From NCBI RefSeq assembly GCF_003334765.1, contig NZ_QOWT01000131.1: 350 bases of DNA. One strand, 5' to 3'. This stretch comes from Escherichia coli. Lineage in GTDB: Bacteria; Pseudomonadota; Gammaproteobacteria; Enterobacterales; Enterobacteriaceae. Made by a program: the position numbers and the translations under genes. Numbering within the stretch: the stretch's first letter is position 1; every line of letters starts with the position of its first letter. Shown in pieces: positions 1-348 of this stretch. Below the pieces are notes generated by a model that had not been told where the DNA came from, made no database searches, and saw nothing but the letters and a program-made list of their open reading frames with translations.

Positions 1-348
1 CGGGAATGGCTGATTCTGAACATGGCGGGACTGGAGCGTGAAGAATTCCGGGTGCTGTATCTGAATAACCAGAATCAGCTGATTGCCGGTGAAACCCTCT
101 TCACCGGCACCATCAACCGCACGGAAGTCCATCCCCGGGAGGTGATTAAACGCGCCCTGCACCACAATGCCGCTGCCGTGGTGCTGGCACACAATCACCC
201 GTCCGGTGAAGTCACACCCAGCAAGGCAGACCGCCTTATCACGGAACGTCTGGTACAGGCACTGGGCCTGGTGGATATCCGGGTACCGGACCATCTGATA
301 GTCGGTGGCAGCCAGGTTTTCTCCTTTGCGGAACACGGTCTGCTTTAA
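1..348 (+). CDS. yeeS: RadC-like JAB/MPN+ (JAMM) domain protein, UPF0758 family (YeeS/YkfG/YfjY-like); 5'-partial, C-terminal ~115 codons plus stop
   Basis: Seen in sequence: frame +1 has no stop from nt 1 to the TAA at 346..348 (nt 1..21 read R-E-W-L-I-L-N before the first Met at 22). The translation contains the JAMM signature [14 protein letters not shown] and a C-terminal ...[24 protein letters not shown] typical of RadC-like proteins. CTG-rich codon usage fits Enterobacteriaceae. Established knowledge: the H-x-H-x7-S-x2-D motif defines the JAB/MPN+ metalloenzyme fold. The symbol yeeS is from recalled similarity to the E. coli cryptic-prophage paralogs; I cannot separate yeeS from ykfG or yfjY without an alignment, so read the symbol as family-level. 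Confidence 0.88.
85..108. repeat. Perfect 9-bp inverted repeat (gccggtgaa / ttcaccggc) with a 6-nt spacer (accctc); potential stem-loop within the coding region
   Basis: Read directly: 85..93 gccggtgaa; 100..108 ttcaccggc is its exact reverse complement. It lies in frame over codons A-G-E-T-L-F-T-G. Its existence is certain; any function is unknown. Confidence 0.5.
190..231 (+). other. JAMM/MPN+ metal-binding motif H-x-H-x(7)-S-x(2)-D (predicted Zn2+ ligands His57, His59, Asp70, numbered from the Met at nt 22)
   Basis: Codons 190..192 CAC (H), 196..198 CAC (H), 220..222 AGC (S), 229..231 GAC (D), giving [14 protein letters not shown]. Spacing matches the canonical JAMM signature exactly. Candidate upstream glutamates (E35 or E40 in RTEVHPRE) could supply the catalytic Glu, but which one cannot be decided without a structural alignment. 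Confidence 0.85.

Follow-up and report, generated by a model that had tools for sequence, protein, structure and literature searches.

A RadC-family JAB domain encoded in an Escherichia coli island keeps an intact JAMM motif under purifying selection and is probably an active zinc-dependent hydrolase

The window analyzed here, a stretch of 350 bases of Escherichia coli DNA, encodes what is, judged from its sequence, probably the catalytic domain of a YeeS-type RadC JAB/MPN+ protein maintained as an active zinc-dependent hydrolase. The presence of the motif is not itself new: E. coli RadC was listed in 2003 among the prokaryotic JAMM-motif proteins, with its function given as unknown (PMC300881), and in the RefSeq annotation of E. 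coli K-12 the paralogs YeeS and YkfG each carry the description "RadC-like JAB domain-containing protein," whereas YfjY is called a "CP4-57 prophage protease." The intact JAMM motif reported in an earlier note on this DNA thus restates the literature since 2003 and the RefSeq annotation, and it does not narrow the substrate. What is added here is the strength of purifying selection, a set of five catalytic and three RadC-specific invariants, the rank of the JAB gene in conservation among its neighbors, and a bias of its homologs toward plasmids over phages.

Frame 1 of the plus strand is open from the first base of the window to a terminal TAA, and the window is 100% identical to part of gene RG41_RS26370 (NZ_CP010151.1; protein WP_001186181.1) of E. 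coli D8, a 477-bp gene encoding a 158-aa protein annotated as JAB domain-containing. The entire D8 ORF is intact, and the statement in the earlier note that frameshifts and internal stops are absent holds for both the window and its source gene. Since the window represents the 3′ two-thirds of the D8 gene, it covers residues 44–158, which comprise the whole JAB domain and, ahead of it, the final helix of an N-terminal extension; the protein as a whole consists of a minimal JAB core of ∼110 residues that follows a short helical N-terminal extension. An ATG at base 22, offered as a start in a list of open reading frames, was rejected because it is internal Met51 of the 158-aa protein. The window was also scanned for other features: no match to PADLOC defense models was obtained, Rfam matches were at chance level only, and no promoter or terminator was found.

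Family membership was assigned with profile searches. The translation matches Pfam RadC (PF04002) over model positions 11–121 of 121 with E = 3.4e-44 and Pfam Prok-JAB with E = 1.2e-4, and it scores 149.1 bits against TIGR00608 (NCBIfam, radc subfamily), above the cut-off of 133.85, placing it in the RadC family. Against NF000642, the equivalog profile of the housekeeping RadC/YicR protein (∼212–224 aa), the score of 161 falls below the cut-off of 180, and the match is confined to profile positions 88–211 of 212; because the N-terminal ∼87 profile positions are unmatched, the helix-hairpin-helix region is absent. The JAB domain is what the two types have in common, and they differ also in setting, housekeeping RadC/YicR being a core gene whereas the type found in the window is island- or plasmid-borne. 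More distant genome loci, with 45–60% identity and a length of 224 aa, are of the housekeeping RadC/YicR type. Of 5426 complete E. coli genomes, 4797 carry the gene; the median copy number is three, and nearly all copies are chromosomal.

The four residues of H-x-H-x7-S-x2-D that the earlier note had read with canonical spacing are exact in the frame 1 translation (codons cac aat cac ccg tcc ggt gaa gtc aca ccc agc aag gca gac), and the pattern H.H.{7}S..D has this single match across all six frames of the window (Table 1). Shuffling the bases of the window produced the bare motif 25 times in 20,000 trials (∼0.1%), and shuffling the residues produced it 68 times in 200,000; a chance motif is excluded by the E value of the Pfam RadC match together with that of the alignment to the solved RadC homolog 2QLC in the PDB (E = 1.2e-25). 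A catalytic glutamate, which the earlier note had left to be located, is present as E57 and completes the signature E-x[n]-H-x-H-x7-S-x2-D. The protein accordingly has the full JAMM/MPN+ set, E57 and H107-N-H109-x7-S117-x2-D120, with the histidine and aspartate spacing of the AfJAMM zinc ligands H67, H69, and D80, which lie on the β4-to-α2 segment of that protein (PMC300881). The RadC-specific invariants, namely the G-T, P-R-E, N-A, and D-H segments, are likewise all present in the window.

Table 1. Features of the 350-base window (positions counted from its first base; residue numbers are those of the 158-aa D8 protein)
Feature	Position	Strand	Basis
RadC-family JAB/MPN+ (YeeS-type) codons, residues 44–158 of 158 aa	1..345	+	translation; 100% identity to WP_001186181.1; Pfam
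E57 (gaa), predicted catalytic Glu/general base	40..42	+	invariance; aligned to 2QLC Glu
G79-T80, RadC-conserved, outside JAMM motif	106..111	+	G79 in 93/93, T80 in 89/93 relatives listed
R89 of the P-R-E segment, RadC invariant outside JAMM motif	136..138	+	93/93 relatives listed; 84/84 loci, six Arg codons
JAMM signature; H107 (190–192), H109 (196–198), and D120 (229–231) predicted Zn ligands	190..231	+	invariance; 2QLC and Rpn11 alignments
S117, predicted oxyanion-stabilizing Ser	220..222	+	invariance; 2QLC and Rpn11 alignments
D140-H141, RadC invariant pair outside canonical JAMM motif	289..294	+	93/93 relatives listed for each; 84/84 loci, both synonymous codons
TAA stop codon of the gene	346..348	+	translation; annotated CDS end

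Searches of the PDB with the single sequence and with a profile returned 2QLC as the sole match, and further JAMM structures were found by fold comparison only. The 2QLC entry, the sole RadC-family structure solved, is a structural-genomics structure of a Chlorobium tepidum RadC homolog without assigned function, a fragment of a longer RadC of the housekeeping type, and its HNHPSGDVQPSNAD matches the window motif residue for residue. An AlphaFold2 (AF2) model built without an alignment had a pLDDT of 44.8 and was discarded as unusable; with an alignment of 117 homologous sequences the mean pLDDT was 86.9, and Foldseek comparison of this model with 2QLC gave a TM-score of 0.88. In the model, H-x-H closes a strand (102–108), S-x-x-D begins a helix (118–132), and E57 immediately precedes the opening strand of the JAB core (58–64), a predicted arrangement consistent with the JAB/MPN (deaminase-like) α/β fold. 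The zinc ligands of AfJAMM occupy the corresponding strand-to-helix segment (PMC300881). When the protein was aligned by hhalign with the single yeast Rpn11 sequence (checked against PDB 3JCK), H107, H109, S117, and D120 paired with Rpn11 H109, H111, S119, and D122, with an E value of 0.3 that is not significant alone. These Rpn11 residues are the ligands of that enzyme. The comparison with solved JAB proteins proposed in the earlier note thus sets the motif against its counterpart in 2QLC and, ligand to ligand at that nonsignificant E value, against that of Rpn11. Identity between the window's protein and AfJAMM, PfJAMM1, Rpn11, CSN5, AMSH/Sst2, BRCC36, CBASS Cap3, and BilC is 11–18%.

An exhaustive and unbiased phmmer scan of 1.84 billion protein representatives recovered 40,763 clusters (50% identity) at E ≤ 1e-3. 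From the matches listed, a distant set of 93 relatives with <62% identity and with the domain covered was taken, and among these E57, H107, H109, S117, and D120 are each invariant (93/93). The free variation across orthologs that, according to the earlier note, would have spoken against an active metallohydrolase is consequently absent from the five catalytic positions in the relatives listed. A codon alignment was also built from 84 sources: the window gene, its three K-12 paralogs, one pOXA-48-type plasmid, and 79 genome loci. The 80 genome loci had been found partly through the peptide pattern AHNHPSGE, and conservation of the motif among them is biased for that reason; invariance is claimed here from the phmmer set, which this bias leaves unaffected, as it does the dN/dS values given below. 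Within the 84 partly motif-selected sources, every catalytic codon is used in both synonymous forms while the residue stays constant, as with E57, which is encoded by both GAA and GAG and kept in 84/84. A MAFFT alignment seemed to show four exceptions at the catalytic residues, but these were rejected, being attributable to an error-ridden sequence, a truncation by IS110 fusion, and C-to-T hypermutated reads.

This pattern bears on whether the motif might be kept for structure or binding alone, the protein acting as a metal-stabilized scaffold or as a binder of DNA or protein without catalysis. The noncatalytic MPN scaffolds Rpn8, CSN6, Abraxas, Prp8, and eIF3f/h are among the structural neighbors of the model, and no activity has been demonstrated for the RadC family, both of which are compatible with such a role. 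However, MPN− domains typically lose the motif, and the general-base glutamate and the oxyanion serine, which a structural metal does not need, are as invariant as the ligands (93/93 of the relatives listed), so a purely structural role is unlikely and we give it little weight beside that of an active hydrolase.

Conservation extends beyond the canonical motif. Among the same matches listed, G79, R89, D140, and H141 are each found in 93/93 relatives and T80, N99, and A100 in at least 89/93. R89, D140, and H141 are therefore as invariant in the 93 distant relatives listed as the zinc ligands are, and their codons vary synonymously. Canonical descriptions of the JAMM motif omit equivalents of these three residues, and R89 and D140-H141 are extra invariants that distinguish RadC from the canonical JAMM isopeptidases. 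R89 together with D140-H141 may form a putative RadC-specific substrate site, within which D140-H141 may be a substrate or second-shell site.

The closest of the K-12 paralogs is YeeS (b2002, in CP4-44), which shares 113 of the 115 residues encoded in the window (98% identity; the differences are H98Y and S147N) and is followed, as is the window gene, by genes for the DUF987 protein YeeT, CbeA, and CbtA. YeeS is annotated as 10 residues shorter at the N terminus and has yeeR as its upstream gene, whereas the D8 copy has an ArdB-like gene there and lies in a different island, beside the kps capsule genes. The K-12 yeeS gene (L002 6219–6755) is annotated from the methionine corresponding to Met11 of the D8 protein; the in-frame sequence upstream of it has stop codons and overlaps the end of yeeR, which indicates that K-12 yeeS has lost the first 10 codons and the upstream ArdB-like gene. 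YkfG (CP4-6) is 83% identical over the window part. YfjY/LfgB (CP4-57) is 78% identical over the same part and has an identical JAMM layout and the same antirestriction-JAB-DUF987-antitoxin-toxin gene order, but its N-terminal 40 residues differ from those of the window's protein.

The D8 locus runs from genes for a GTPase and the Ag43 adhesin through DUF932, ArdB-like antirestriction protein, JAB, DUF987, CbeA, CbtA, a DUF5983 fragment, and DUF957 to DUF4942, and then to a fragment of IS110 and the kps capsule genes. Its core, ArdB-JAB-(DUF987)-CbeA-CbtA, is found in that order on one strand in 32 Enterobacterales loci, whose genera include Escherichia, Citrobacter, Mixta, Siccibacter, Kluyvera, Franconibacter, Buttiauxella, Yersinia, Serratia, Rahnella, Cedecea, Kosakonia, and Tatumella. 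The module of DUF932, ArdB-like, JAB, DUF987, CbeA, and CbtA genes is found in P4-integrase-type islands of Enterobacterales and is kept in 15 genera or more. JAB is the best conserved gene of the module: across loci L007–L022 its product shows ∼78–82% identity, compared with 57–75% for the neighboring ArdB, DUF987, CbeA, and CbtA.

Homologs of the protein are encoded by 2319 of 72,556 plasmids (3.2%), 71% of which are conjugative, and by 34 of 50,697 phage records (0.07%). Since the frequency in plasmids far exceeds that in phages, "cryptic prophage" is a loose description. The premise of the earlier note that the gene belongs to a cryptic prophage therefore survives in part, in that the K-12 islands are so labeled, and gives way in another part, in that the module looks derived from a conjugative or integrative element. 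These data suggest a conjugative-element ancestry for the modules of CP4-type "cryptic prophages" that carry a JAB gene. On the IncL pOXA-48-type plasmid, the JAB gene adjoins a DUF3085 gene, a pairing of DUF3085 with RadC that is also noted in a 2026 paper, and lies near DUF4942 and an antirestriction gene. Regions flanking the plasmid homologs are too variable or too poorly annotated for placement in the leading region, and RadC is not mentioned in the leading-region anti-defense paper or the genomic-island preprint. The DUF4942 gene (L001 10016–10858; L005 10660–11520) is common to the island and the pOXA-48-type plasmid, near JAB in both, and shows a weak match to a PHROG annotated as a DNA methyltransferase (E = 3.6e-15). 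Island and plasmid may thus have another gene for establishment in common.

Selection on the JAB part of the gene was estimated by the Nei-Gojobori method. The median dN/dS is 0.057 (182 pairs with dS of 0.05–1.0, among 35 copies from Enterobacterales and K-12), compared with 0.11 for the N-terminal extension, and in pairwise comparison the JAB part of the window gene gave 0.07 with yeeS, 0.10 with ykfG, and 0.13 with yfjY. The ratio across paralogs and orthologs that the earlier note had called for is accordingly low, and the catalytic codons vary only synonymously. Its proposal that conservation of the active site is a sign of selection is well supported by the invariance and the dN/dS, which in turn would point to an active enzyme. 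That the gene is instead a decaying remnant of a cryptic element, with a motif left intact by recent acquisition and not by selection, is very improbable. Such decay would fit the labeling of the K-12 islands as cryptic prophages, the pseudogenes and IS fragments near the D8 gene, and the existence of rare truncated, IS-fused, and in-frame-deleted copies, some of the E. coli deletions removing catalytic residues. It is contradicted by the low dN/dS, which is ∼0.06 even among paralogs with near-saturated synonymous sites, by the retention of the module across genera with JAB as its best-conserved gene, and by the abundance of the two forms: clusters of the intact 158-aa protein have thousands of members, whereas the damaged forms are singletons.

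Among near-identical E. coli variants, 13 carry in-frame internal deletions, and six of these lose a catalytic residue; two lack E57 and four lack the H-x-H region (P0048, P0049, P0081, P0089, P0095, and P0107). All six are singletons and could be rare inactivated alleles or assembly artifacts. Two odd copies from other sources were also seen. In Tatumella saanichensis (L052 3900–4360), a deletion has taken the ArdB-like gene and JAB codons 1–50, so that the remnant ORF directly follows the DUF932 stop codon, begins at the methionine equivalent to base 22 of the window, and retains the full JAB domain and motif. In a metagenomic homolog of 108 aa (P0163), V, I, S or F, and Y stand systematically in place of A, T, P, and H, the pattern of C-to-T change throughout a genome; it looks like bisulfite-treated or deaminated DNA entering the protein database.

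By homology with AfJAMM, Rpn11, and AMSH, we infer that H107, H109, and D120 would hold one Zn2+, that E57 would activate the zinc-bound water, and that S117 would stabilize the tetrahedral intermediate. As the substrate we tentatively favor a peptide or isopeptide bond of a protein target. To our knowledge, all biochemically characterized JAMM enzymes cleave peptide or isopeptide bonds, and this preference rests also on the isopeptidases among the structural neighbors of the model and on the YfjY/LfgB report. In that report, the antitoxin MqsA and casein were broken down in vitro by YfjY/LfgB, and cells with the gene deleted became sensitive to H2O2 (PMC10846083); the assay employed overnight incubation of a poorly soluble preparation without an active-site mutant, and its authors state that contaminating proteases cannot be strictly excluded (PMC10846083). 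The JAB isopeptidases that are coupled to a ubiquitin-like protein (Ubl), of the Rpn11, Cap3, BilC, and Mec+/QbsD type, are associated, in the genome or in function, with a β-grasp Ubl and with E1/E2-like enzymes. No Ubl, E1, or E2 gene is annotated near the JAB gene in the D8 locus or the Enterobacterales loci, and a classic Ubl-coupled role is therefore unlikely.

The same zinc site could act instead on a nucleic acid, a nucleotide, or a protein-DNA adduct, for example as a nuclease or DNA-end processor for the incoming single-stranded DNA (ssDNA) of the element, and this is a credible possibility, if one we do not favor. Aravind and colleagues have argued that the RadC JAB domain is without the ubiquitin-tail groove, and RadC is found fused to HhH, ArdC-N, DnaG-primase, and DinG helicase domains at positions usually occupied by nucleases (PMC3239186, PMC5512222). 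JAB domains have the fold of deaminases, and cytidine and DNA deaminases are among the fold matches of the model; the extra invariants R89, D140, and H141 lie outside the JAMM motif; an ArdB-like antirestriction gene is directly upstream; and the distribution of homologs is weighted toward conjugative plasmids over phages, as given above. A passage in PMC10846083 further cites overproduced YfjY as a mutator. Against this, nuclease activity has been reported for no RadC protein, and proteolysis is what the single experimental study of a paralog describes (PMC10846083). For the protein of the window, cleavage of a peptide or isopeptide bond remains our preferred, and conditional, assignment.

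We propose that the gene would benefit the element, either as it becomes established or when it conflicts with the host. A more specific suggestion, which we advance speculatively and regard as rather unlikely in full, is that the short RadC proteins (YeeS, YkfG, YfjY, and the pOXA-48-type JAB protein) are enzymes of establishment or anti-defense that act with the adjacent ArdB-like protein at the entry of ssDNA and are not general proteases. They could possibly hydrolyze a protein linked to DNA, the end of a nucleic acid, or a factor of host defense.

RadC is among the most widespread bacterial families without an accepted biochemical function, and in nearly 90% of complete E. coli genomes island copies lie beside genes for antirestriction and for toxin-antitoxin systems. 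The strong purifying selection on the active site implies that the enzyme is useful to the element or the host, and biochemistry with active-site mutants as controls is therefore justified. If true, the establishment or anti-defense reading would give a substrate to the RadC family, with its 40,763 clusters.
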